This document shows positions 4,093-20,000 of a stretch of DNA of 20,000 nt, piece after piece. Position 1 is the stretch's first letter, and the number at the start of each line of letters is the position of its first letter. Source of the DNA: an uncultured virus (IMG/VR IMGVR_UViG_3300031994_003577). Its lineage: Duplodnaviria > Heunggongvirae > Uroviricota > Caudoviricetes. The translations under genes were made by a program, and so were the position numbers. The notes beneath the pieces were generated by a model. It did not search any database. It was not told where the DNA came from and saw nothing but the letters and a program-made list of their open reading frames with translations. Where the stretch lies: IMG/VR virus record IMGVR_UViG_3300031994_003577, positions 53,474 through 73,473 of that record. One strand, written 5' to 3'.

Positions 4093-5385
4093 ATGAATCT
4101 TATTTATAATGTTGAAGATAAACCTCGTTTTTCTCAGACACTTGTGTTTGCTTTTCAGCAGTTGCTCGCTATTGTTGCGGCAACTATTGCTGTACCGGCT
4201 ATTGTAGGAAATGGTATGACCGCTAGCGCCGCGCTATTTGGCGCAGGTGTTGGTACATTAGTATACCAGTTGTTCACTAAGTTCAGAAGTCCTGTTTTTC
4301 TTGGTAGCTCTTTTGCCTTTCTTGGTTCAATGTTTGCCGCATTTGGTGGTGCAGTATCGCTAAGCGTTGGATACCTTGGACTAATTATTGGCGCGGTCTT
4401 TGCTGGATTAGTTTATGTAATTCTTGCACTAATTGTTAAGTTTGCGGGAGTAGAATGGATTAACAAGCTGATGCCGCCAGTAATCATTGGACCGATTGTG
4501 GCTATTATTGGACTTTCACTTGCAGGCAATGCTGTAAGTGATATGATGAGCGCGGGTTACCTTGGATTGGTGTGCGCGCTTGTAACACTCTTTGCCGTAA
4601 TAATTAGTAGTGTTTACGGAACTAAAGGAATGAAGTTAGTACCCTTCATTATAGGCATTGGCGCAGGGTATGCGTTAGCGCTAATTCTAAGTATTACTGG
4701 CGCGGCGCCTCTAATTGAGATGTCTAAGTTTAAAGAAATTGATGGTGTATTTGCCCTTCCACAATTTAGTTTTCTTAATGCGTGGGATGGTTTACGTCAA
4801 ATTGATTTAACTTATATTCTCACAATTTTCTTTGCGTATGCGCCGGTCGCATTTGTAGTATTTGCAGAGCATTTAGCGGATCATAAGAATTTATCTTCTA
4901 TTATTAATCGTGATTTGACTAAGGACCCAGGTCTTCATCGTACTCTTCTTGGTGATGGTATTGGTTCAATGGCTGGTGCTTTCTTTGGCGGCTGTCCAAA
5001 TACAACTTATGGTGAATCCATTGGTTGTGTTGCAATTACAGGAAACGCTTCTGTAATTACAATTACAGCGGCGGCGCTTCTTGCGATTATTGTATCATTC
5101 ATTAAGCCATTAATGGTCGTACTTGACAGTATTCCAGCCTGCGTAATGGGTGGCGTGTGTATGACACTTTATGGATTTATTGCGGTTAGTGGATTAAAGA
5201 TGTTGCAACCAGTTGATTTGAATAAGAATTCTAATCTATTTACTGCTTCTGTAATTCTTATTGCTGGTGTTGGCGGATTAAGTATTAGTTTTAGTACCGG
5301 CATGGGTGAAATTGCAATTACTACAGTAGCGTGCGCGCTGATACTTGGTATTATAACGAATTTAATCACAAGAAACGAAAAGTAA
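4093..5385 (+). CDS. uraA: uracil/xanthine permease, NCS2 (UraA/PyrP) family
   Basis: 430-aa polytopic membrane protein; P.FLGSSFAF, PPVIIGP, DG...FGG.PNTTYGESIG..AIT NAT signature, IP..VMGG. Confidence 0.9.
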   Translation: MNLIYNVEDKPRFSQTLVFAFQQLLAIVAATIAVPAIVGNGMTASAALFGAGVGTLVYQLFTKFRSPVFLGSSFAFLGSMFAAFGGAVSLSVGYLGLIIGAVFAGLVYVILALIVKFAGVEWINKLMPPVIIGPIVAIIGLSLAGNAVSDMMSAGYLGLVCALVTLFAVIISSVYGTKGMKLVPFIIGIGAGYALALILSITGAAPLIEMSKFKEIDGVFALPQFSFLNAWDGLRQIDLTYILTIFFAYAPVAFVVFAEHLADHKNLSSIINRDLTKDPGLHRTLLGDGIGSMAGAFFGGCPNTTYGESIGCVAITGNASVITITAAALLAIIVSFIKPLMVVLDSIPACVMGGVCMTLYGFIAVSGLKMLQPVDLNKNSNLFTASVILIAGVGGLSISFSTGMGEIAITTVACALILGIITNLITRNEK

Positions 5386-9867: not shown

Positions 9868-10620
9868 TAGGGAATTTTCTAGAAATTTTTCCAAAAACCT
9901 CATACTATATTCGGAAAATTTTCCAAAAACGTATTATATGCGCGTGTAATTTTCGGAAAAAATTCCAAAAAATTTTCGGAAAACGCATATAAAATTCTAA
10001 AATTTTCCGAAAAATGCGCGTGAAATTTTCCGAAAAACGTACATAAAAAATTCCGAAAATTTCGTGTACGAAAAAATTATAGTTTTGAATTGAAAAAATT
10101 ACATTTAAAATGTAAATTAAGGGGTGTTATAGAAATAAAAAGTAACAGAAAAAGGTTAGGGAATGTCCGGAGATGAGAACGTTACACCAAACGTTCAACC
10201 CCACCAAGTGCACGAAGAACGTATACGTTTAAACGTATAATTAAAACGGGCGAAAGGCCGCCCCAGTCCCAGCTGCCACGAAGAACGTATAAGTATAACG
10301 TATACGTTTAAACGTATACGTTAGGGTATACAGTCGATGCGGGAGTGGAAGTGGCGAGACGGGGTAGTGCGTGAGAATGGAGTGAGATGGAATGAGTCTT
10401 GTAAAGTTTAGTTAGGTCTTGTTAGGGTAGGATAGGTCTCTGCGCCAAATTTAACACCAAAGCAAATTTTAAAATAAAATATATAATATAATATATAATA
10501 TATAATACGTTAAACGTACAATAAAATAACACATTAAATGTATACGTAAAACATATAATTAAAACGTATAATTAAAACGTATACGCTGAACGTATACGCT
10601 GAACGTATAATGCGCGAATC
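9868..10620. repeat. non-coding repeat/palindrome-rich region at the strand switch
   Basis: Multiple GGAAAATTTTCC/TTTTCGGAAAA-like units (9868-10070); CACGAAGAACGTATA x2 (10211, 10277); 28-bp perfect palindrome 10296-10323; AT run 10478-10506; AACGTATA repeats 10563-10609. Confidence 0.85.
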
Positions 10621-10673
10621 ATAAATTTATTGCAAATTTTAACTCGTGTCAAATTTTCGGCGCGCATAAAATA

Positions 10674-10712: not shown

Positions 10713-11060
10713 TTATTCAGCGCGAGTATAGCCCTTCTGCAGCTTATTGCCGACTTTCACATCAGCAGACACCGCGCGGCCATTCGCAACCAGCATGCGC
10801 AGAAGAGAGCTGGCCTTCGGAATACTGGTGATACCGTCGATGCCGAGCGCGTACACGTCGTTTGCCGTGATAGCCTTATCGCTCAGGTGCGCGAACACCT
10901 GCTCTGCCAGCTCAAGGTTGGCTTCCTGCTTCGGAGTGAGCGTGGTGCGCTTCTTCTCCAGCTGCGCGTCGATCTGCGCGAGTTCCTTCGTCGCAAATTC
11001 CTTGGTCTCGTCGTTCATGGTTCCATTGATAACTGCATTCAAAAATTCACGCTTCGTCAT
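10713..11060 (-). CDS. winged-helix-like protein, paralogue A
   Basis: Aligns with 13125, 16193 and 18024 ORFs (MTx(R/K)EFL...TAxxI/V...KA..L...K.Y); helical N-terminus plus wHTH-like C-terminus. Confidence 0.75.
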   Translation of the reverse strand: MTKREFLNAVINGTMNDETKEFATKELAQIDAQLEKKRTTLTPKQEANLELAEQVFAHLSDKAITANDVYALGIDGITSIPKASSLLRMLVANGRAVSADVKVGNKLQKGYTRAE

Positions 11061-11143
11061 AGTGATTTTCCCTTTCAGCGTCGGTCGCCACCCATTAATT
11101 TTTTAGGTTCTTCGGTTTCTTTCTCCCTTCACCTTACATATAT

Positions 11144-11172
11144 ATTATACTAAAATTTTAGAAAAATTTCAA
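11144..11172 (-). promoter_or_regulatory. sigma-A/70 promoter
   Basis: TTGAAA-17-TATAAT on minus strand. Confidence 0.75.
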
Positions 11173-11400
11173 AATTTGAACGCAGCTTATTTGCGCGAAT
11201 CTTAAAATTTGACAGCTCCAGCTTTTTTGACCTGCGCGTAAAATTTGACAGCTTTTGAAGCATATTTTGCAGCTTTTTGCAAATTTTCCCAGCTCCAGCT
11301 TTCCAGCTCCTAGCTTCGCAGCTTATTTTGCAGCTTCTTAAAATTTGATTAATTTGGAAATTTGCCCGGGTATAAAATTTGCATCCGGTCAAAATTTGCA
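11152..11400. repeat. interspersed CAGCT and AAATTTG short repeats
   Basis: About ten CAGCT and several AAAATTTG(A/C) units in about 250 bp of non-coding DNA. Confidence 0.7.
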
Positions 11401-11458
11401 TATGCGCACCCGCTGCGTAATAAATGAAATAAGATGATTTTTGTTTTATTTGACCCTC

Positions 11459-11487
11459 TTGACAAGCAAAAAAATTTGTAGTATAAT
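11459..11487 (+). promoter_or_regulatory. consensus promoter pointing into the minus-strand array
   Basis: TTGACA-17-TATAAT on + strand. Confidence 0.75.
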
Positions 11488-11545
11488 ATAATGGGTAAAA
11501 CTTGACTTTCGCCCGGGCAAAATGGCCGGCGCGCATAAAGATACA

Positions 11546-11572
11546 AAAAAAAGAGTGCTTATGCACTCTTTT
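11546..11572 (-). terminator. bidirectional terminator overlapping the stop codon
   Basis: AAAAAAAGAGTGC-TTAT-GCACTCTTTTT. Confidence 0.7.
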
Positions 11573-11879
11573 CCTTTTTGGCCTTGGCGATCTTGCGCGC
11601 CTTCTCTTCGGCCTTCTTTTCGCGCTTCTTGCGCGCCTCTTCCTGCTTGAAAGAGTACGCCTGCGCCTCTTCATAAGGGTCATAACCCTCGCCATCCCTC
11701 GCACCCTTGGGAATCTGCACCACAATGCGCACCGCACTTTCCTCGCCGTCCTCAACAATGGGAACGGCATAGGATGCAGAACCGACCTGCAATACATCAT
11801 ACCCAAAGGACTTCAGACTTTCCACAATATGGGAAATAACCTCATCACGCGACTTTTCGCCAACCTTGGAACTTGCCAT
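11559..11879 (-). CDS. hypothetical protein, paralogue of 16852..17166
   Basis: Shared VGS.S...P.VE..EE.AV.IV.QIPKG.R.G.GYD.YE.AQAY.FK plus Lys-rich tail; own promoter TTGACG-17-TATACT (11910-11938). Confidence 0.8.
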   Translation of the reverse strand: MASSKVGEKSRDEVISHIVESLKSFGYDVLQVGSASYAVPIVEDGEESAVRIVVQIPKGARDGEGYDPYEEAQAYSFKQEEARKKREKKAEEKARKIAKAKKEKSA

Positions 11880-11981
11880 AGTTTTTATCTCCTTTCTTTT
11901 TCTGTAATAAGTATACCATACTCTTGGTCTCTCGTCAAGTAAAATCTACGTAAAGTCCCGGGCAAAGCAACTGCGGCGGTT

Positions 11982-12638
11982 TTAATCCCGCCACAGTCTA
12001 CCATCAATAGAGGGCGCGAGGCTCAAAAGATACTCGAAAATTTTACGCTCAATCTGAACATCTTCCAAACCTGTATGCGATTCTGTAAAATCCAAGTCGT
12101 TTGTAATAAACTTGTAAAGGACTTCGGCAGTATATCGTGGCTTACCGTTTGCGGTCACAAAGTTATTTGCAACGCAGAAGGTTTTATACTCATCATTATC
12201 TGCAAGAATTTCTCTTGCCATAGTGAGAGTATCCCACCATTCAACGCCCCAAGGGAACACCCAACGCCAACGTGACGAGGTTTCATATCTTTGTGTAAGG
12301 TGGATAGAATGATAGTCAAAGCGCGCGTTGTGGGCACAAATCACTTTTACATCATTGTCAACGATTGCCTTGTACAATGTTTCGATGATTGCGCGCCAAG
12401 TCCGCAGTTCACGCTTGCCTCTTTGAATATCGCTCCAATAGGCAGGAATCTTGTCTGCGAAAAATGCGGAAGCCATCAGTTCTTTATCACAAAACACGTC
12501 CGCATTTACAAAACTGTTGCGGTCGTAAAGGTTGCCGTCAAGGTCAAAAATTTCATAACCCAAATCATATACAATAGGGTCATCAATAGAGTTAGTGGTT
12601 TCGGTGTCAAGCATCAACACGCGCATGGTCTTGTCCAT
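11982..12638 (-). CDS. DEDDh 3'-5' exonuclease (DnaQ-like)
   Basis: ExoI LDTET, ExoII AHNARFD, WDTL, ExoIII HTGLEDV; own promoter TTGACT-17-TATAAT (12671-12699). Confidence 0.88.
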   Translation of the reverse strand: MDKTMRVLMLDTETTNSIDDPIVYDLGYEIFDLDGNLYDRNSFVNADVFCDKELMASAFFADKIPAYWSDIQRGKRELRTWRAIIETLYKAIVDNDVKVICAHNARFDYHSIHLTQRYETSSRWRWVFPWGVEWWDTLTMAREILADNDEYKTFCVANNFVTANGKPRYTAEVLYKFITNDLDFTESHTGLEDVQIERKIFEYLLSLAPSIDGRLWRD

Positions 12639-12752
12639 TTGTTTTGTTCCTTTCTTTAACTTACAAATTTATTATACATGATATATTGCAAAAAGTCAAG
12701 AGATAGTTATGTAAAATCTATGTAAAACGCGCCCCCCCCCCGGGCCGAGGCC

Positions 12753-12959
12753 TCACTCAAGATTGAGTGAGGCATTCGGATACACGCGCACTTCATCAGT
12801 AGGGAAGAAATGGGCAAATGAGCCATCAGAAAGGCAGACCGCGTTTCCTTCTTCTGTGCATTCTATCCGCATGAAGAATTTTTCATAATCATAGTTATAA
12901 AACACTTCACCGAGATTTACATCTCCAAACATGGCAGTCGGCAACTGATTAATCTTCAT
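12753..12959 (-). CDS. hypothetical protein (MKINQLP...)
   Basis: AAAGGAAAG RBS; promoter TTGACT-17-TATACT (12992-13020). Confidence 0.75.
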   Translation of the reverse strand: MKINQLPTAMFGDVNLGEVFYNYDYEKFFMRIECTEEGNAVCLSDGSFAHFFPTDEVRVYPNASLNLE

Positions 12960-13085
12960 TTTTTTTACTTTCCTTTCCTTTTTCTGTAATAAGTATAACA
13001 CATAGAGAATAAAAAGTCAATACTAAAAAATAATATATTTTTGTGAAAATCGCCCGGGCAAGTTAGACAACTCTAACTATTTTAT

Positions 13086-13117
13086 ATAAAAAAAATGGGA
13101 ATTACTTCCCATTTTTC
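13086..13117 (-). terminator. intrinsic terminator
   Basis: AAAAAATGGGAA-TTAC-TTCCCATTTTTT. Confidence 0.75.
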
Positions 13118-13124
13118 GTTTGGG

Positions 13125-13445
13125 TTACAGACTGTAACCCTTGACCACGCGGCGGTCAACCTGAACATCCGTAACACGGACGCCTTCGAGACGCTTGCAA
13201 AGCGCGGTTGCCTTGGACGTATGCACATCGAGTGCCGCGCCGATTTCCGCGGCGGTCATGGGATGGTTCGCGCTCGTCAGCAAGTTGCGCAGAGCATCAA
13301 GCATGGGAGCATCTTCGGCGGACTTCTTCGCGGCGCGATTGCTTGCGGATTCGTTCGCCTTGCGGAGTGCCTCGGTCGCGTGTGCGATAACTTCGGCGGT
13401 GATGTTGTTCTCGGATACAGCAGTCAGAAATTCCTTGTTCGTCAT
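13125..13445 (-). CDS. winged-helix-like protein, paralogue B
   Basis: HPMTAAEIG...HTSKATALCK...KGYSL; promoter TTGACA-17-TATAAT (13504-13532). Confidence 0.8.
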   Translation of the reverse strand: MTNKEFLTAVSENNITAEVIAHATEALRKANESASNRAAKKSAEDAPMLDALRNLLTSANHPMTAAEIGAALDVHTSKATALCKRLEGVRVTDVQVDRRVVKGYSL

Positions 13446-13569
13446 AGTAGTTTAGTTTCCTTTCTCGTGGTTGGTCACGACCCTTTCTTTATCTTACGTA
13501 CTTATTATAGCACATAGATTCTTGTTTGTCAAGTCCTTTTTTCAACTTTTTCAAAAAATTTTTTTGAAA

Positions 13570-13680
13570 GAGAGGGGTTCCAAGGGCTTTGGTCTTTTTT
13601 TTCGGCTTGGGCCCTTCCGCCTACTCACTTGGGACTTACACACCATTAGCCTCGCCCACAGGGTCTCGCCCTTGGAACAA
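13570..13680 (-). ncRNA. candidate structured small RNA or leader 1 (5' GUUCCAAGGG)
   Basis: Own promoter TTGACA-17-TATACT (13685-13713); no RBS/ORF; perfect 11-bp terminal stem 13577-13587/13668-13678. Confidence 0.55.
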
Positions 13681-13769
13681 TTATAGTATAACACACCCCT
13701 TACAGAATGTCAATACTTTTTTTCAAAAAAAATAATATATTTTCTGCGCGCCCGGGCAGTTAGAAGACT

Positions 13770-13997
13770 TTAACAGTCTTCTGTATAGCACCCCATATAT
13801 GGGTCGAACCCTATTTCAAGATCGTAATCTTCTTCATCTTCGTCCTCGTCATAGTCATACTCGTCTTCATCATCATCCCAAACTTCGGGATTATCTTGCG
13901 GTTCTTCTGCACCGCACCAATATTCGCAATCGCAATTATACGTTGCGTCAAAGGGGCAAACTCCGTCATCGCAAGGGGTTTCACGCTTAATCGACAT
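13770..13997 (-). CDS. highly acidic Cys-containing small protein
   Basis: MSIKRETPCDDGVCPF...long D/E tract...GFDPYMGCYTEDC; GAGGA upstream. Confidence 0.7.
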   Translation of the reverse strand: MSIKRETPCDDGVCPFDATYNCDCEYWCGAEEPQDNPEVWDDDEDEYDYDEDEDEEDYDLEIGFDPYMGCYTEDC

Positions 13998-14127
13998 TTT
14001 CTTCTTCCTCACTTTCTTCTTCAAAGTTGTATCGCCAATATTCGGAACAGTCAAAGGTTGGGTCGGTTACTTTACAGTTACCATCCTCATAAAAGGGGCA
14101 TCGAAAACCATCATAAAGACAAATCAT
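13987..14127 (-). CDS. 46-aa Cys-rich acidic protein (MICLYDGFRCPF...)
   Basis: Four Cys, acidic tail; AAGGAG RBS; overlaps both neighbours. Confidence 0.6.
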   Translation of the reverse strand: MICLYDGFRCPFYEDGNCKVTDPTFDCSEYWRYNFEEESEEEENVD

Positions 14128-14308
14128 TTTCTTCTTTCTCCTTTTCTTCTTTTTCATAGGCTTCCTCTAAACAGAAGTCACCGCCCTGTGCGTGGCAGTA
14201 AGGTCTGCGAGAGTACGAGTGTTTGCCATCTCCGCAACGCCAATGCGGACAGTTGACGCAATGGTCATTTTCCTTTTCGGGTTTGCCCCATCTCTTTGCC
14301 ATAGTCAT
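14111..14308 (-). CDS. small Cys/His-rich protein
   Basis: GAAGGAG RBS; promoter TTGACA-17-TATACT (14332-14360). Confidence 0.65.
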   Translation of the reverse strand: MTMAKRWGKPEKENDHCVNCPHWRCGDGKHSYSRRPYCHAQGGDFCLEEAYEKEEKEKEENDLSL

Positions 14309-14405
14309 TGACTCCTTCATTTGATGATATAAGTATAACATATAATGCGCGCGTTGTCAATAGTTTTAGGATAATATATTATTTCGGCCCGGGCAAACTG
14401 CGACC

Positions 14406-14846
14406 TCACAGGGCGCGCAGAATGTCAATAATTGCATTTGCGTCAAATGCTTCACCCGTCCATGCTTCACGGATTCCTGCATTATCATCAAATAAAATCC
14501 CTTCGGGAAATGCAACGGTTTCCTGCTTCGGTGTGCCATAGGGAACAATAGAAATTTCATCCCATTCCACAGACGGCAAATGCTTTTTCAACCAACCGAT
14601 TTTTGCAACAGTTACGGCACATTCATAGTCCTCAGTAGAATTTTTTGCTGTCCACGAAATGACACCGATATGGTATCCTTCCTTTTGTAACTTGTTCAGA
14701 AGGCGCGCGAGTGTAGAGAGACGAACGAGAGGACGCGCGATAATATACGGCGAAGGATCAGAAGCATGAAGGGCATCAAGCCAACCATTGATATTATAAA
14801 GGTCTGCGAGAGTTCCGTCCATATCGAAGTAAATTGCTTTGGTCAT
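14406..14846 (-). CDS. HAD-superfamily phosphatase (5'-nucleotidase-like)
   Basis: Motif I FDMDGT, motif II ISWT, Lys, motif IV LFDD; promoter TTGACA-17-TATGAT (14878-14906). Confidence 0.85.
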   Translation of the reverse strand: MTKAIYFDMDGTLADLYNINGWLDALHASDPSPYIIARPLVRLSTLARLLNKLQKEGYHIGVISWTAKNSTEDYECAVTVAKIGWLKKHLPSVEWDEISIVPYGTPKQETVAFPEGILFDDNAGIREAWTGEAFDANAIIDILRAL

Positions 14847-14950
14847 TTTAGGATTTCCTTTCTTTCTTTGTGTATATATCATAACATAGTATTATGGATT
14901 TGTCAAGTACTTTTTCGCAGAAAAAATAATATATTTTGTGCGCCCGGTCA

Positions 14951-15517
14951 TTAGGCAAGGACAATGTCCTTACCTAAATATTCGGCAACTAGTTTATTAA
15001 ATGTTCTTGTTGGAATATCAACACCGAAAAACCTATCATTTTTATGGAAAGCTTCGGGGTGTTTCCGAATGTAAGCGGCGCGTGTATAACTTTCCGCTCC
15101 TTCTGCGGGGATCGCGCCGCAATCAATTACGGAACAGATTTCAACATTAGCAACGGCGATCCCATGTTTTTGATAGTATCTGATTTCTTCTTTTAATCTT
15201 TGTTCAGGAAGTCTTGTTGTTGTACCGACTTTTGAACAGATTAACTCTCCATTTTCATAGTAAAATTTGTAGAGGTAAACGAGTTGTCTGCCGCCGCGCA
15301 TAACTGCTTTGACTTTTTGTGTGATGTGATAGAATTTATTACACGCTTCCTCGATACGGTCTGCAAAATCGTGAATATATTTTTTAATTGTTGAAATTGC
15401 ATAACCTGTCCATTTTTTAATTTGTTCATGGGTAAATCCATGCTTATCAAGGTAAATTGTCTGAAGATGCTTTGTATCGGCATCTTCAAAAATTTGAAAA
15501 GCATCAATTTTTTTCAT
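14951..15517 (-). CDS. HTH plus GIY-YIG/T5orf172-like domain protein
   Basis: N-terminal GFTHEQIKKWTGYAISTIKKY (HTH-like); LVYLY...SKVGTTTR.PEQRLKE...E resembles GIY-YIG superfamily; promoter 15550-15578. Confidence 0.6.
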   Translation of the reverse strand: MKKIDAFQIFEDADTKHLQTIYLDKHGFTHEQIKKWTGYAISTIKKYIHDFADRIEEACNKFYHITQKVKAVMRGGRQLVYLYKFYYENGELICSKVGTTTRLPEQRLKEEIRYYQKHGIAVANVEICSVIDCGAIPAEGAESYTRAAYIRKHPEAFHKNDRFFGVDIPTRTFNKLVAEYLGKDIVLA

Positions 15518-15636
15518 GTTTTTTTATTTCCTTTCTTTTTTCTGTATTTAGTATAACATAGATTGAGAGATTTGTCAATATTTTTTTAAAAAAAAATAAT
15601 ATATTATTTCCTGGAATGCGCCCGGGCGAAAACCGC

Positions 15637-15861
15637 TTATAGTGATTCATTATTAAATTTTTCTGTTCCGTATTTTTCCAACCACTTTTCTACTTCTGTG
15701 CGTCGATTTTGTAAAAATGCAAGTTCTTTTTCGATTCTTTTAAGTTCTTCGTGATAAAGCTGTGTTTTTCTTTCTCGCCGTTTTTGTTCTTGTTCGGCAA
15801 GTCGGCGGTCGTTTTCTTCGTGTAAATATTTGATAAAGTCGTTATACTCTGCTTTATTCAT
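15637..15861 (-). CDS. coiled-coil hypothetical protein
   Basis: AAGGAG RBS; start at 15861 (MNKAEY). Confidence 0.7.
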   Translation of the reverse strand: MNKAEYNDFIKYLHEENDRRLAEQEQKRRERKTQLYHEELKRIEKELAFLQNRRTEVEKWLEKYGTEKFNNESL

Positions 15862-15871
15862 TTTTTTCTCC

Positions 15872-16051
15872 TTAGATATAAATAATAATTTCTTTTGGTG
15901 TGTGCCGAATACCGACAACTTTTTCATCGTTTACGTTGGTATTGGAGTTATTGCCCATTCCCTGCCCAACCTTATTGTGAATATCGTCAATATAATATAT
16001 ACTGTAACGAGTGTACCAAGAAAAACATGCAATTAAGTCTTTAACAAGCAT
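15872..16051 (-). CDS. 59-aa hypothetical protein (MLVKDLIACF...)
   Basis: AAAGGA RBS; promoter TTGACT-17-TATACT (16081-16109). Confidence 0.65.
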   Translation of the reverse strand: MLVKDLIACFSWYTRYSIYYIDDIHNKVGQGMGNNSNTNVNDEKVVGIRHTPKEIIIYI

Positions 16052-16192
16052 TTTTGTATTTCCTTTCTTTTTCTGTAATTAGTATAACATACTTATATCG
16101 AAAAGTCAATAGTTTTTTCTAAAAAAATAATATATTTTATCGCGTCCGGGCGCGAGGTGCGACAATTATGTCGCACCCATGGTGTACTCTCA

Positions 16193-16534
16193 TTAGAGAG
16201 AGTACACTTTGACGATGCGCTTGTCTGCCTGTCCTTCACCGATAACGATGCCCTCGATGTGCTTGCAGAGTGCCGTTGCCTTGGAAGGAGTGTAGACGCC
16301 ACTAACGTTGGTGGCAATCTCGGACGCCGTCACAGGATGCCCCTTGGAAGTGAGAAATGAACGAACGGCTTCGAGAAGTTCGCCGTTTTCGGCGTACCAC
16401 TTGTCGTTGCGCTTGCTTGCGGCGTTCGCATTTGCGGTCGCACGCTTTTCGAGTTCGGACTTTGCAAAAGCGATTGCGTCATCGGTCAGAGTTCCGTTTG
16501 CGATAGAGGTGAGAAATTCGTTCATGTTCTTCAT
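16193..16534 (-). CDS. winged-helix-like protein, paralogue C
   Basis: HPVTASEIA...TPSKATALCK...KVYSL; promoter TTGACA-17-TAAAAT (16586-16614). Confidence 0.8.
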   Translation of the reverse strand: MKNMNEFLTSIANGTLTDDAIAFAKSELEKRATANANAASKRNDKWYAENGELLEAVRSFLTSKGHPVTASEIATNVSGVYTPSKATALCKHIEGIVIGEGQADKRIVKVYSL

Positions 16535-16640
16535 AGTTTTTGTTTCCTTTCTTGCGGTAGGTCGCAACCCCTTATTTCTGTAATCATTTTACCATAGGTT
16601 TGGGAGTTTGTCAAGAGGTTTTCAGAATTTTTTTTGAGAT

Positions 16641-16719
16641 TTTTTTGGCTTCGTGGGTGAATCTCAAAACCACTTTTGCCAACTGATTGCCCTTGACAAT
16701 CTCTTGTCCCTTGGAACAA
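16641..16719 (-). ncRNA. candidate small RNA or leader 2 (5' GUUCCAAGGG)
   Basis: Own promoter (16724-16752); 25-bp block identical to 13669-13693 and 18606-18630; no RBS/ORF. Confidence 0.5.
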
Positions 16720-16836
16720 TTATAGTATAACAGATGGGGTAAAAAATGTCAATACTTTTTGTGTAAAGATTGTGTAAAATTGGGCGCCCGGGCAAGTTAG
16801 AGAAATCTAACGATAAAAAATTTTCATAATTTTAGG

Positions 16837-16870
16837 AAAAAAAGGAGAGCATTAGTTGCTCTCCTTTTTC
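16837..16870 (-). terminator. terminator overlapping the stop codon
   Basis: AAAAAAGGAGAGCA-TTAGT-TGCTCTCCTTTTT. Confidence 0.7.
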
Positions 16871-17166
16871 GCTTTTGCAATTTTCTTTGCTTTTTCTTCT
16901 GCTTTCTTCTGCCGCTTCTTTTCGGCTTCTGCACACTTAAACGCATACGCCTGTGCGTCTTCGTATACATCATATCCCGTACCGTTACGTTCACCTTTCG
17001 GAATCTGGAATACGATTTTCACGGCGGTTTCTTCTTCACCTTCAACGGCGGGAATACCGAACGAACCACTGCCAACACGAAGAACATCAAGTCCTTCTAC
17101 TTCAAATGCTTTGCGAACAATTTCCATCAAATGTGCACGAGTTGCTTCACCAATTTTTTCTGCCAT
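16852..17166 (-). CDS. hypothetical protein, paralogue of 11559..11879
   Basis: Clear full-length similarity; promoter TTGACA-17-TATAAT (17198-17226). Confidence 0.8.
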   Translation of the reverse strand: MAEKIGEATRAHLMEIVRKAFEVEGLDVLRVGSGSFGIPAVEGEEETAVKIVFQIPKGERNGTGYDVYEDAQAYAFKCAEAEKKRQKKAEEKAKKIAKAKKESN

Positions 17167-17282
17167 AGTATTTTTCCTTTCCTTTTTTTCTGTAATAATT
17201 ATATCAAAACTTTTTTGAAATGTCAATACTTTTTCTAAAAATATATTATATATAATCCCGCGCCGGGCATCAAAGGCATGAG

Positions 17283-17522
17283 TTAAATCTCATGCCCATC
17301 AGCATCAAAGTCGTAGAAGTTCCCTTCATCATCATCAAAACAAACTCCGTCAAAGGTAAGTCGATAACAAAGTCGAAAATTCCTGTTACAATCGTTACAA
17401 CCACAATTATAAAAGAAGTAATCGTCTTCGGGGTAACTGTCGTAATAGTCAATATTGTCACTCGCGCAGAATGGACAATGACCGTCCTCAACATGATACT
17501 TTTTCTTGTTCGAATTTTCCAT
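17283..17522 (-). CDS. acidic zinc-ribbon protein
   Basis: CPFC...CNDC; D-rich. Confidence 0.7.
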   Translation of the reverse strand: MENSNKKKYHVEDGHCPFCASDNIDYYDSYPEDDYFFYNCGCNDCNRNFRLCYRLTFDGVCFDDDEGNFYDFDADGHEI

Positions 17523-17669
17523 TTATTCGTCCCATCCTTTCTTATGTTTTTCTTTTCGAGAATATTTTTTCTTATCTTTTTCGATTCTTGTATAGGGTTT
17601 TACATCGCCCCAATCTCCGCGAATTTTGTGAAGTGCGCGCAGTTGATTTTCAGAAATCATTTTTTCCAT
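17523..17669 (-). CDS. small basic protein (MEKMISENQ...)
   Basis: AAAGGGA RBS; promoter TTGACA-17-TATAAT (17701-17729). Confidence 0.65.
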   Translation of the reverse strand: MEKMISENQLRALHKIRGDWGDVKPYTRIEKDKKKYSRKEKHKKGWDE

Positions 17670-17748
17670 TGAAGTTTTCTTCCCTTTCTTTGATGACTTT
17701 ATTATATCATCTTTGAATTGTTTTGTCAATACTTTTTTGAAAAAATTT

Positions 17749-17859
17749 TCATGCCATAATCCAAACCATCAAAAGGAAAAGACTAAAAATAGCACTCACA
17801 TAAAGGAAATTTTTTACCCACCAAATAATGGAAAATTCACGCACACGATATTTTTTCAT
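17749..17859 (-). CDS. 36-aa membrane peptide (MKKYRVREFS...)
   Basis: AAAGGAG RBS; promoter TTGACT-17-TATAAT (17888-17916); one TM segment. Confidence 0.6.
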   Translation of the reverse strand: MKKYRVREFSIIWWVKNFLYVSAIFSLFLLMVWIMA

Positions 17860-17993
17860 TTTTTTCTCTCCTTTATTTTCTATAATTATTATATCATAAA
17901 ATTTCCAAAAAGTCAATTTTTAAAATGTAACTATTTTGTGAATATTGGCGCGCCCGGGCGCGGATTGTATATTATATATAAAAATTTTTTTAG

Positions 17994-18018
17994 AAAAAAA
18001 AGAGGGCTTTCGCCCTCT
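17994..18018 (-). terminator. intrinsic terminator
   Basis: AGAGGGC-GAAA-GCCCTCT plus T-run on minus strand. Confidence 0.8.
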
Positions 18019-18023
18019 GTGAC

Positions 18024-18365
18024 TTACAGACTGTAAGTCTTGACGATGCGCGAACCGATGCGCTTTTCGCCCACCACAACGCCCTCGACCATCTTGGCGA
18101 TAGCGGTTGCCTTGGAAGTGTGAGCGATGCCGATGCCAGCGCTGACGATTTCAGCAGCGGTCAGCGGAGCGCCTGCCTGCGACAGCAGAATGGATACAGC
18201 TTCGACAAGCGGCGCGTCCTCTGCGTTCTTCTTCTCTGCGCGCTTCTGCGCCGCCTTCACGGCTTCCTCTGCCTGCTTCGCAAGCAGTTCCTGCGCCTTC
18301 TGCGCCATCTCTGCGGTAACAACCGCGCCTTCGGTGATTGCCTGATACAGTTCCTTGTTCGTCAT
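18024..18365 (-). CDS. winged-helix-like protein, paralogue D
   Basis: APLTAAEIV...HTSKATAIAK...KTYSL; promoter TTGACA-17-TATAAT (18452-18480). Confidence 0.8.
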   Translation of the reverse strand: MTNKELYQAITEGAVVTAEMAQKAQELLAKQAEEAVKAAQKRAEKKNAEDAPLVEAVSILLSQAGAPLTAAEIVSAGIGIAHTSKATAIAKMVEGVVVGEKRIGSRIVKTYSL

Positions 18366-18505
18366 AGTTTTTTCCTTTCTTGCCTTTCGGCTTCGCGTCG
18401 GTCGCGACCCTTTTTATTTAGTGGGGCTTTCGCTCCTCACTTTCTGTAATCATTATAGCACGCTTTACGTTGGTTGTCAAGGGGTTTTTGAAAGTTTTTC
18501 AAAAA

Positions 18506-18617
18506 TTTTTTCGGCTCTCACGAGCGCGCCTTGCGCTTCAACATACCGCCCCTTGGCAACCTTCTTTCCCTCGGTGGGTGAGTGCCCTCGGCTGTTTCCC
18601 TCACCCCCTTGGAACAA
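18506..18617 (-). ncRNA. candidate small RNA or leader 3 (5' GUUCCAAGGG)
   Basis: Own promoter (18622-18650); GC-rich; repeated CC(A/G)AGGG; no ORF. Confidence 0.5.
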
Positions 18618-18744
18618 TTATAGTATAACAGATAGGGTGAGTTTTGTCAATACTTTTCTGCGAAAAAAATAATATATTATTTCTCGGCGCCCGGGTAAAA
18701 CAGGAATAAATAAAACAAAATGATTTTAGTTTTATTTTATGGCA

Positions 18745-18990
18745 TAAAAAAAGATCTATTTTATAGATCCTTTTAATGGCTCTGCTCCGTCCATCCGCGG
18801 CGGTTGGTTCGTTTTGCGCTCACTGACAACCAACTGTGCCATCCGCGGCATCTTTGCCCCACTTATATTTTACAAGGGTAGACGACTTACTGACTCTCAT
18901 GGGTCTCACACTTTCGAACTTGGTGTGCTTTGCGTCTTGCGGAGAGAGGGCCTATGCCCCTTGGCTTGGTGGCCCTTGGCTCACCTTGCA
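18745..18990 (-). ncRNA. candidate ~245-nt ncRNA occupying its own cassette
   Basis: Promoter TTGACA-17-TATAAT (18996-19024); terminator GATCTAT-AAA-ATAGATC plus T-run (18746-18774); no RBS-led ORF. Confidence 0.55.
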
Positions 18991-19085
18991 TAGTTATTAT
19001 ACTGCAAGGCTCTTTATTTGTCAAGAGTTTTTGTGTAAAGATTATGTAAAACAGGTCGTGCCCGGGCGATAAAAAAAAAGAGGCT

Positions 19086-19544
19086 TTACGCCTCAACGCG
19101 CGCGAGTGTTTTTTCGCTTGCGAAGGTCGCGCGCTGGAATTTGATTTGATAGGCGATTCCGTTTACTTCGATGTCACCGCCCTCGGTGAAGGGAAGGTTA
19201 TCTTTTTCCCATTCCTGTCCGAAGCTTTCGGTTACGAGCTTTTCAAAAACTTCGCCGCGATTGTAAATACTTTCCGAGCAAGCTTCTTCGAAGTACTTTA
19301 CCGAGCAGAGAACCTTCGAATTGTTCAGCATGAAGATTTTTTGGTCTTTCGTGGGGCAGAAGCGGATCGAATAGCCCGCGCCGCGGCTTGCATGGTCAAG
19401 GGTGAGAACGAACGGAAGAACGCTTGCATCCGTTTTGGTCATGTATACATTTCCCTCAAAAGTAAAACCGAAAATGTATTGATGGGTATAGGAAGCGCGG
19501 TTGTATCTGTCAATCATGGAATTGAAAAGCGCCGTGTTAGTCAT
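19086..19544 (-). CDS. hypothetical protein, possible PD-(D/E)xK-like nuclease
   Basis: Start MTNTALF with AAAGGA RBS; promoter 19576-19604; C-terminal GEVFE...GDIE.....QIK pattern. Confidence 0.6.
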   Translation of the reverse strand: MTNTALFNSMIDRYNRASYTHQYIFGFTFEGNVYMTKTDASVLPFVLTLDHASRGAGYSIRFCPTKDQKIFMLNNSKVLCSVKYFEEACSESIYNRGEVFEKLVTESFGQEWEKDNLPFTEGGDIEVNGIAYQIKFQRATFASEKTLARVEA

Positions 19545-19731
19545 TTCTTTGAGTTCCTTTCCTTTTTCTGATACAAGTATAACATACGCAACCGGTTCTG
19601 TCAACGGGTTTCTTGTAAAAAGTATGTAAAATTAGAAAAAAAATTAATATGATTGTATAAGTTGTATTTAATGGGTCGGTGGATGTTCGCGCTCCCTTTC
19701 GGTACCACTCCCCGTCCCTTTTTCTATATTT

Positions 19732-19760
19732 ATTATATCATGAGAAATTCAAAAAGTCAA
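19732..19760 (-). promoter_or_regulatory. sigma-A/70 promoter preceding a GC-rich non-coding segment
   Basis: TTGACT-17-TATAAT with extended TG. Confidence 0.75.
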
Positions 19761-19888
19761 CCCCTTTTTCAAATGTTCACATTTTGTTCATAATTGCATA
19801 ATGATTCCGTGCGCTGCATAAATTATACACTGGGCGACTAAAGAGAAATAAAATAAGATGATTTTTGTTTTATTTTTTTTCGCCCGGG

Positions 19889-20000
19889 CATTTACGTAAA
19901 CGTTTGCGTACAACCATTTACGTAAACGTTTGCGTACAACCATTTACGTAAACGTTTGCGTACAACCATTTACGTAAACGTTTGCGTACAACCATTTACG
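19889..20000. repeat. 26-bp perfect tandem repeat (at least 4.3 copies, truncated by window end)
   Basis: Unit CATTTACGTAAACGTTTGCGTACAAC at 19889, 19915, 19941, 19967, partial at 19993. Confidence 0.95.

Follow-up and report, generated by a model that had tools for sequence, protein, structure and literature searches.

A stretch of 20,000 nucleotides from a large uncultured tailed phage of the rumen (the window; IMG/VR record IMGVR_UViG_3300031994_003577, Caudoviricetes, positions 53,474 to 73,473) forms the last 20 kb of a 73,473-bp contig, whose first bases fall within a gene and whose last bases belong to a perfect 26-bp tandem array. Much of its right half is occupied by a row of short gene units on the minus strand, at whose junctions the palindrome GCCCGGGC (hereafter the GC box, or simply the box) recurs. 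Read on that strand the junctions follow a common order, namely the previous stop codon or terminator, the box, a spacer of about three kinds, a TTGACA-17-TATAAT promoter, an AAAGGA-type ribosome-binding site and then 1-3 short genes or an untranslated stretch. Twenty such near-consensus sigma70-type promoters (10-12 of 12 matches), all directed leftward, lie between 11144 and 19760. The genes of the array contain no in-frame TAG and are mostly orphans, the exceptions being a DEDD-like exonuclease (11982-12638, minus) and a HAD-type nucleotidase (14406-14846, minus). Paralogous units recur, as the earlier note on this DNA had observed: a 113-aa winged-helix-like family (F0; 18024-18365, 16193-16534, 13125-13445 and 10713-11060, within 10713..18365, minus) is present in four copies and a 104-aa family (F1; 16852-17166 and 11559-11879, minus) in two.

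Followed in the direction of transcription, the first box (19882..19889, exact) abuts the 26-bp tandem array (19889..20000; 4.3 perfect copies with a 14-bp palindrome per unit), where the contig assembly broke, and lies 121 nt upstream of the promoter at 19760. The second (19060..19067, exact) is 18 nt past the stop codon of the gene for F4, a 152-aa early protein (19086..19544, minus), and 35 nt ahead of the -35 at 19024. A variant at 18689..18696 (ACCCGGGC on the minus strand) precedes the -35 at 18650 by 38 nt, an exact copy within CGCGCCCGGGCGCG (17952..17959) precedes that at 17916 by 35 nt, and a degenerate site with 2 mismatches (TGCCCGGCG, 17262..17269) lies upstream of the promoter at 17226. 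Exact boxes in the context CTAACTT-GCCCGGGCG stand at 16786..16793 and 13052..13059, respectively 33 nt ahead of the -35 at 16752 and 31 nt ahead of that at 13020. Between these two lie the variant GCCCGGAC (minus strand, 16144..16151; 34 nt ahead of the -35 at 16109), an exact box 9 nt past a stop codon (15620..15627; 41 nt ahead of 15578), the variant GACCGGGC (minus strand, 14942..14949) 1 nt past a stop codon and 35 nt ahead of 14906, and two exact boxes at 14387..14394 and 13750..13757, which follow stop codons by 11 and 12 nt and precede the -35 elements at 14360 and 13713 by 26 and 36 nt. Further on come the variants GCCCGGGG (minus strand, 12738..12745; 7 nt past a stop codon, 39 nt ahead of 12699) and GCCCGGGA (minus strand, 11956..11963; 18 nt past a stop codon, 17 nt ahead of 11938). 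The row closes with a distal pair (11364..11518; 11511 exact, 11364 variant) that has no strong downstream promoter; the arrays of relatives also end in promoter-less doublets or triplets. The box is often framed as T-GCCCGGGC-G, and in three cases as CTAACT(T)-GCCCGGGCG.

At up to one mismatch GCCCGGGC has 16 matches in the window, 9 of them exact, against 2.46 +/- 1.52 expected from shuffled sequence (n=200; maximum 7, with 0/200 shuffles reaching 16). The claim that the motif occurs once per junction is borne out: 14 of the 15 sites listed in the earlier note, whose coordinates include the preceding C, are recovered at this threshold, that at 17261 is the two-mismatch variant, and the site at 11364 is additional. 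The motif is indeed absent from the left 10 kb, no match lying left of 11364, and the true copies span 11364-19889. All 13 occurrences of CCCGGG in the 73,473-bp contig fall in this interval, and the other one-mismatch matches in the contig are of the GCCCGCGC type only, including one at 19374 inside a coding sequence, which is probably due to chance. The same phage is represented by a 121,389-bp viral record (99.994% identity over 18,017 nt; CheckV completeness 95%), where the array continues for about 5 units beyond the window contig, up to a divergent gene and another AAACGTTT-type repeat block. Counted genome-wide, a check proposed together with the motif, the box remains confined to the array: all 10 exact copies in the 121-kb genome lie inside one 10.8-kb array of host-type promoter cassettes, and in three whole records the exact copies are confined to a single array (10/10, 8/8, 8/8; reversed-pattern control 0, 1, 0). 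A full-text literature search pairing GCCCGGGC with phage returned unrelated matches, the motif not being found in print as a phage motif, and megablast of the array against the GenBank phage collection gave no match.

The whole array comprises 20 sites and 28 strong promoters, of which 18 have a site at most 135 nt upstream and 10 have none. These boxless promoters include all five internal ones already named as lacking the motif (19604, 18480, 17729, 16614 and 13532, minus), which indicates that the box is an add-on outside the core promoter. As to its placement relative to stop codons and promoters, the site lies 1-18 nt past the previous stop codon in 8/20 and 31-41 nt ahead of the -35 in 11/20. 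Across 8 loci 68 of the 91 sites have a promoter of at least 10/12 within 150 nt downstream, at gaps of 13-121 nt, and the other 23 copies are mostly doublets or triplets at the distal ends of arrays.

Conservation was measured in high-scoring segment pairs (HSPs) of 70-90% identity by requiring the box in the query only and scoring the subject (258 junction comparisons, 120 query sites). Within the subject sequences the box is retained at 89.6% and its central CCGG at 93-95%, as against 65-70% for the adjacent 4-6 nt and 79-81% for the wider flanks. Exact copies number 373 on the distinct contigs fetched, and in 344 unique exact sites A is avoided at -1 and -2 (2% and 5%) and T at +1 and +2 (1% and 5%), a mirror-symmetric pattern. 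Judged by these comparisons of diverged junctions the box is under selection. A conserved box with mirror-symmetric flanks favours recognition of duplex DNA by a symmetric reader, and disfavours both a functionless passenger and a signal in RNA.

The latter possibility, in which the box would be part of a terminator or processing site in the transcript, is suggested by its position closely behind stop codons or terminators (terminator-like hairpins are present at some junctions, e.g. 18018-18001, 19094-19080 and 11576-11545) and by one copy within a 14-nt hairpin-capable palindrome (17949-17962). However, a loopless palindrome of 8 nt cannot fold on itself, the constraint on its flanks is symmetric on duplex DNA, and the 8/20 junctions with the box 1-18 nt past a stop codon leave no room for a hairpin. 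In addition, contigs of an RNA library cross two sites. They come from a sheep-gut metatranscriptome run in which 47% of the sampled words are present and contigs match the phage at zero differences over eight stretches; those bridging the boxes at 14387 and 17262 do not reveal strand or transcript ends, and the library may hold DNA, which makes them weak evidence. We consider an RNA-level role scarcely credible.

Replacement of the box in related phages

Ten loci were drawn by means of the exonuclease (44-100% protein identity), and 9 of them have 3-13 exact boxes. In relatives that have no GC box, the slot between the terminator of the preceding unit and the outermost -35 is taken by another perfect palindrome, which is again missing from the internal promoters. 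The slot element is TTTAGACGT..ACGTCTAAA (TTAGACG..CGTCTAA type) in L018 and L037, a related form with half-sites in L036, TTTCGTACGT..ACGTACGAAA (TCGTACG..CGTACGA type) in L020 and GGCCGGCC in L068 and L088; L007 has degenerate CCGG boxes and the L093 group has no slot element. GC boxes and long palindromes never occur together in one locus: 23 of 31 loci have at least 3 GC boxes and no TAGACG-type palindrome, and three have 13-22 such palindromes and no GC box. In cassettes common to the window phage and L018 (66-72% identity, order differing) homology starts exactly at the -35 hexamer, implying an exchange limited to the slot. L020 and L006 have in common a gene of 94% identity, with quite different slots ahead of it. 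Shared genes behind different slots imply that the slot element changes in concert across the array while the genes diverge in the ordinary way.

The neighbours of the box are themselves lineage-specific while the box stays constant. One clade has a GAACATATGTTC palindrome before it and a TTGTTAA-N-AAATTAACAA palindrome after it; in another a GTTAGC..GCTAAC hairpin abuts the box. The GAACATATGTTC palindrome occurs 7-20 times per array in L006, L009, L010, L011, L013 and others, usually 4-10 nt upstream of the GC box, and 0 times in the window phage; we take it to equal the consensus of the Gram-positive LexA (Cheo) box.

Concerted change of slot elements across the junctions of a genome requires their spread by recombination, and the L093 group manages without any. 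Both observations suit a box that is functionless, being spread or kept uniform by gene conversion among promoter modules, or that acts as a GC clamp between AT-rich tracts. Against this, diverged junctions preserve the box far better than the bases directly beside it, its sequence is exactly palindromic and the constraint on its flanks symmetric, and the slot alternatives, at 19-23 bp, are perfect palindromes as well, for which a GC clamp offers no explanation. A passenger of this kind appears to us very improbable.

Another view assigns the box to the host, either as a binding site of a host regulator or nucleoid protein or through interaction with a CCCGGG-type restriction-modification system. 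In its favour, early promoters must act before any phage protein exists, and other junction palindromes in relatives resemble sites of host regulators, such as GAACATATGTTC, taken above as a LexA box, and TGTGA-N6-TCACA, which we assume to be of the CRP/FNR type. However, close relatives (~80% nucleotide identity, with near-identical F0) use different slot palindromes, which fits a phage-borne reader better, and a restriction target would be purged rather than kept at each junction under selection. A host factor or a restriction relic is accordingly rated as quite improbable, if a shade less so than the passenger.

Candidate readers and a proposed role of the box

When all reading frames of 26 distinct loci were clustered in search of proteins linked to the slot, two families emerged. 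F4 is present in 13/18 GC-type loci, in 0/5 long-palindrome loci and also in L007. A second protein of ~215 aa (the EVKT family, with a PD-(D/E)XK motif) was found in long-palindrome loci only (3/5); distantly related to it is a 157-aa protein from L018 (hhalign 77%, E 2e-5). Two independent draws of loci bore out this division. With F4 as the query, 56 of 79 loci have an exact box (at least 3 in 40 of them, 1-2 in 16) and 23 have none, and long-palindrome arrays account for 0/79. Conversely, among 22 loci drawn by the EVKT protein the GC box is seen in 0/22 and long palindromes stand ahead of most strong promoters in 20/22; across these 22 loci the palindrome subtype tracks the protein subfamily. 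The EVKT family retains E58, D78, E91 and K93 in 99-100% of 110 aligned members, a pattern that we take from established knowledge to be the PD-(D/E)XK nuclease signature, and in F4 the residues E101, D124 and Q133-x-K135 are invariant in 40 sequences. Language-model look-alikes of the EVKT protein, of lead grade only, are the ThaI and NgoPII clusters (0.90 each). A scan of 79 EVKT relatives found no credible Pfam domain and one sub-threshold match to Cas4 (E 0.009). To judge from the conserved residues, the EVKT protein and F4 may both possess a nuclease fold, though hhalign finds the two families unrelated (0.1% with shallow profiles, 0.4% with deep ones).

F0 was also considered as a reader and rejected, as its putative recognition helix is essentially identical in GC-box, TAGACG-type, CGTACG-type and slot-less loci. 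Its structural model (predicted local distance difference test score, pLDDT, 82.4) has a weak match to MarR-type winged-helix proteins (best E 6e-3); that of F1 (pLDDT 77.4) has no meaningful fold match (best E 0.29).

Based on the placement, conservation and replacement of the box we propose that a phage protein of regulatory function docks at GCCCGGGC and thereby ties ~20 promoters into one regulon; we give this reading a probability of roughly one half. The palindrome would lie at the core of a site that is recognized symmetrically on duplex DNA, has a footprint of ~12 bp and tags the upstream edge of each early unit. Its reader would be a phage-encoded symmetric (dimeric) protein, the best candidate being F4, which is encoded within the array itself. 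Through it, ~20 otherwise independent strong promoters could be treated as one regulon, for example for shut-off or insulation of the early units after takeover. Sister lineages have other palindromes in the slot and another small protein, so that site and reader appear to be exchanged as matched pairs. Binding of a protein to the site, F4 as that protein and an effect on transcription are all points which we infer. An operator for a phage regulator of early genes had been one of two suggestions of the earlier note, and it is the one that fits best, by virtue of the conservation of the box, its symmetric flanks, the slot replacement and the co-variation with a protein, while being as yet unproven. 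Since the reader may be identifiable by co-variation, an anonymous motif could become a protein-DNA pair that is testable at the bench.

Several observations weigh against this proposal. F4 was not found in the fetched stretch of 5/18 GC-type loci, and the 23/79 F4-bearing loci without an exact box, 13 of which (typified by L093) have no slot element of any kind, imply that F4 is insufficient for the box. The F4- and EVKT-drawn loci share ancestry, so that their counts are non-independent and the association of protein with slot type is confounded. The gap between box and -35 is continuous, with no 10-11-bp phasing (Rayleigh n*R^2 0.4-3.7; 8 loci), and such a variable, unphased gap fits the geometry of neither a classical activator nor a promoter-overlapping repressor. 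From the contigs that bridge two boxes it follows that a bound protein, if any, does not block all read-through. As to F4 itself, its language-model look-alikes are clusters of type II restriction enzymes (ThaI 0.90, SmaI 0.86; lead grade only), and even these find no echo in profile searches: 7 F4 proteins matched no nuclease family in Pfam at E<=10, the SmaI model PF17411 matched nothing at E<=10 in the six frames of three records, and an F4 profile found nothing credible among PDB sequences. A prediction of the F4 homodimer (score 0.00, mark 0.42) counts neither way.

A more specific form of the proposed docking site is possible, and we advance it only tentatively. Here an early protein of restriction-endonuclease fold and the palindrome at the heads of the early units would constitute exchangeable matched pairs (F4 with GCCCGGGC or GGCCGGCC; the EVKT protein with 19-23-bp ACGT-centred palindromes), and at the ~20 joints of its own genome the protein would serve as master switch of the early regulon, seed cassette exchange by nicking, or do both. 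If this were true, related phages would each obtain a control code of their own when pairs are swapped, an analogue of immunity specificities in a phage without sign of lysogeny. Should the reader be a protein of nuclease fold turned into a regulator or a self-nicking enzyme, many promoters would be coordinated in a manner new for a phage, and such a reader could supply orthogonal site-protein pairs for engineering.

Shuffling of the cassettes

The other suggestion of the earlier note was a system for acquiring or shuffling cassettes with GCCCGGGC as its crossover core. Of this the shuffling stands: cassette order and content differ among relatives, and in one independent sample (run X6) a 938-nt contig joins window position 18695 to 15630, at the box copies of 18689..18696 and 15620..15627, with 121 nt on the shorter side. 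This joint shows reordering at a junction, the junction being only ~10 nt wide. The four sequencing runs compared consisted of contigs throughout, and joints in them with short sides (21-42 nt, inside promoters) were discarded as unreliable, since they reflect the likeness of promoters.

The role of the palindrome as core is not supported by the insertions and deletions in near-identical pairs (>=93% identity; 246 boundary pairs, in which the same event may recur across pairs, so that the counts are non-independent). The pair L076/L081 differs by a 1.7-kb insertion flanked by a 92-bp direct repeat that starts 10 nt before a -35, the nearest CCCGGG being 247-338 nt away; L074/L075 differ by a 0.9-kb insertion flanked by a 72-bp repeat, which sets in 22 nt ahead of the box and stops shortly beyond the -35. 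Indel ends concentrate at promoters even where an array lacks a slot element; in such arrays 78/175 left ends fall at +30..+100 from the -35 and 79/175 right starts at -60..0 (~20 expected each), with overlaps of 16-78 bp at the ends. GC-type arrays follow the same pattern (left ends 13/64 vs 2.7 expected; right starts 29/64 vs 6.5) and have a modest excess of ends just upstream of CCCGGG (9/64 vs ~1 expected). The occurrence of the same promoter-centred indels in slot-less arrays implies that shuffling does not need the box. On the evidence of these boundaries the shuffling is a homologous exchange between junction and promoter modules, resembling that of the promoter-stem-loop (PeSL) cassettes of T4-type phages, for which the box is not required. 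Cassettes would be reshuffled in this way separately from the proposed regulation, the motif lying in the module as neither crossover point nor prerequisite. Two easily confused processes are hereby separated: homology of the whole module drives shuffling, and the function of the palindrome is something else.

Integrons have an IntI-type recombinase, promoter-less cassettes and imperfect attC sites of 57-141 bp. The array resembles them in that its short gene units follow one another with a site that recurs at each joint, and a recombinase exchanging strands within GCCCGGGC to capture, excise and reorder cassettes would agree with one site per junction, with cassette order varying among relatives and with the X6 joint, both ends of which are motif copies. 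In diverged arrays, moreover, 21 of 293 HSPs begin no more than 3 nt from the start of the motif, with 0 and 2 in the bins on either side. We set this spike aside as proof of crossover, as the motif is the 5'-most conserved element of each module and BLAST alignments are expected to stop there anyway. The comparison fails on other counts: the site is a perfect palindrome of 8 bp, there is a promoter in every cassette, and the direct repeats at indel ends measure 72-92 bp (GC-type arrays) or 16-78 bp (motif-less arrays) rather than matching an 8-bp core. The dedicated recombinase that the earlier note had envisaged elsewhere in the genome was not found either, neither tyrosine nor serine recombinases being detected in two genomes of at least 95% completeness (controls detected in 14/14 and 12/14 genomes; PF00589 absent from G001, 95% complete, and G002, 100% complete, control 14/14). 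An integron-like core is largely refuted, and we regard it as most improbable.

A different link between box and exchange would exist if F4 were an active enzyme of restriction-endonuclease fold that nicks or cuts the GC box, with the breaks stimulating module exchange or priming recombination-dependent replication. SmaI recognizes CCCGGG. This is the core of the motif, which agrees with the type II restriction clusters among the look-alikes of F4; the invariant E101, D124 and Q133-x-K135 of F4 and the fully conserved E..D..ExK constellation of the EVKT family also point to an enzyme. The excess of indel ends just upstream of CCCGGG, the two units joined at motif copies and the RuvC-like resolvase encoded by the phage can be read in the same manner, and exchange started by a break would be resolved in flanking homology, such as is spanned by the 72-bp repeat of L074/L075. 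On the other hand, slot-less arrays have the same promoter-centred indels, the L076/L081 indel is far from any CCCGGG, F4 has no link to nuclease families at the level of hidden Markov models, and no methyltransferase was found to protect the phage's own 13-20 sites, C5 and N4/N6 DNA methyltransferases (PF00145, PF01555) being absent from the two genomes G001 and G002. We thus think it unlikely that the box is a break site.

Known systems and the phage genome

The observation is real and general, and what it concerns is a PeSL-like region of cassettes in a phage of quite another kind. As far as they are set out in the relevant portions of two accounts (PMC2839356, PMC4122927), the PeSL cassettes of T4-type phages are exchanged by homologous recombination within the module. 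In common with them, within the scope of those portions, the array has small genes, most of them orphans, and an intergenic module that is repeated ahead of each unit and provides a near-consensus sigma70-type promoter; the sequence of the module is lineage-specific, and close relatives differ by insertion, deletion or replacement of units. Its indels are likewise bounded by the module as common homology (the 72- and 92-bp direct repeats, with ends enriched at promoters). Unlike the T4-type myoviruses in which PeSL cassettes reside, the phage has a siphovirus-like tail, TAG-recoded late genes and Gram-positive-looking promoters and ribosome-binding sites. The module differs too, in possessing an extra short perfect palindrome, which is itself no stem-loop terminator, and this palindrome is conserved above its flanks, replaced in sister lineages and co-varies with a small early protein. 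The integron analogy of the earlier note fails, as detailed above, and its PeSL analogy holds for the array. What appears to be new is a selected palindromic address tag with lineage-specific slot alternatives and an apparent pairing with a small early protein, possibly of nuclease fold.

Early promoters of the Bacillus phage SPO1 have binding sites for TF1. The host-takeover module of that phage, as presented in the part of its description considered here (PMC6873191), is similar in comprising ~26 small early genes over 12.4 kb, grouped into operons whose host-type promoters and ribosome-binding sites are strong; unlike in the array, a common palindromic tag at unit boundaries does not figure in that module as described (PMC6873191). 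The stoperators of Cluster A mycobacteriophages offer a parallel for the site, within what the pertinent sections of two papers report (PMC6550527, PMC9283540): ~20-30 copies of one short, mostly intergenic site per genome, a consensus that differs among related phages following the cognate DNA-binding protein (a candidate here), and one protein governing many transcription units (putative here). According to the same sections, stoperators are asymmetric 13-bp sites, oriented with transcription, distributed genome-wide and mostly not promoter-associated, and are read by the monomeric immunity repressor of temperate phages (PMC6550527, PMC9283540). In contrast, the present palindrome is confined to one 10.8-kb early array, usually upstream of a promoter, in a phage for which neither an integrase nor a lysogeny module was found. 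No part of a phage genome is so poorly understood or so variable as its early takeover region, and in a large group of uncultured rumen and gut phages this region is built from standard parts with a common address tag.

The phage decodes TAG as an amino acid in its late and structural genes: there are 12 and 11 in-frame TAG codons in frames of 790 and 795 aa, respectively, and 80 in the tape measure protein (2694 aa). A cluster of 17 tRNA genes is headed by one with anticodon CUA, followed by 16 others, and these features together are found at L002 1777-14627, in L014-L016 and at L003 11-87 (genome 20-53 kb and the part absent from the window contig); a tRNA search of the window itself found none. 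Besides the tape measure, the siphovirus-like tail module includes a Dit protein, and a portal protein is also encoded. The replication and repair complement consists of a DNA polymerase (a match to the PHROG DNA-polymerase family), primase, helicase, topoisomerase, ligase, RNA-repair enzymes, the RuvC-like resolvase, a dUTPase and a serine hydroxymethyltransferase, and a sigma-factor-like protein adjoins the array. The last is a 451-aa TAG-containing protein by the array head (L016 2830-4185, minus; PHROG sigma-factor family, E 1.2e-10, no Pfam match), and on the strength of this match is a candidate phage sigma factor for the switch from host-type early promoters. Sequencing runs X5-X11 contain 6-15% of the sampled words, and we infer no habitat from them.

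The serine hydroxymethyltransferase is present as a fragment (L014 154-750; PF00464, E 6.5e-70) beside the dUTPase and a thymidylate-synthase-like PHROG, a neighbourhood that may feed nucleotide synthesis or a modified base; modification of the DNA would bear on whether a nuclease could cut the boxes. A reading in terms of DNA methylation was dropped, as the PHROG 'methyltransferase' match is this very enzyme and no C5 or N4/N6 enzyme was found.

Three F0 genes on the minus strand have the arrangement of a first promoter (P1) with a box, a leader of ~100-140 nt (13545-13682, 16625-16721 and 18492-18619), a boxless second promoter (P2) and a short hairpin in the 5' untranslated region. The leader has an invariant 5' end, AATTGTTCCAAGGG, and is conserved in L005 and L018; no consensus RNA structure is supported (-0.2 kcal/mol, 0 covarying pairs). 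Two metatranscriptome contigs extend from an F0 gene through P2 and the leader to about the start of P1. A further transcript without a convincing reading frame is expected from the perfect promoter at 19024-18996, which is followed by ~230 nt (18760-18990, minus) ending in a hairpin and T run near 18770. It is a candidate small RNA without an Rfam match, the only 3 Rfam matches in the window being at chance level (E 0.3-0.5).

The ends of the array are bracketed by repeats of ACGT-centred palindromes (window 19889-20000 and 10200-10650; L004 1-170), at one end by the 26-bp tandem array with CGTAAACGTTTACG and at the other by ACGTATACGTT-type repeats. They resemble the long slot palindromes of sister lineages and could represent an origin, a genome terminus or relic slot elements. 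Near the distal end a 12/12 consensus promoter opposes the array (11459-11487, plus) between the two distal boxes, that at 11511 lying ~17 nt past its predicted start, and a bidirectional terminator comes next at 11549-11572. In the convergent gap between the rightward genes and the array (9900-10100) there are several TTTTCCGAAAATT-like palindromes, which in our view presumably resemble the CodY box AATTTTCWGAAAATT. Among the rightward genes, beside those for an RNA ligase and polynucleotide kinase-like proteins, is one for a 430-aa protein of the xanthine/uracil permease family (4093-5385, plus; PF00860, E 1.7e-69), a membrane nucleobase transporter and as such an unusual phage cargo.

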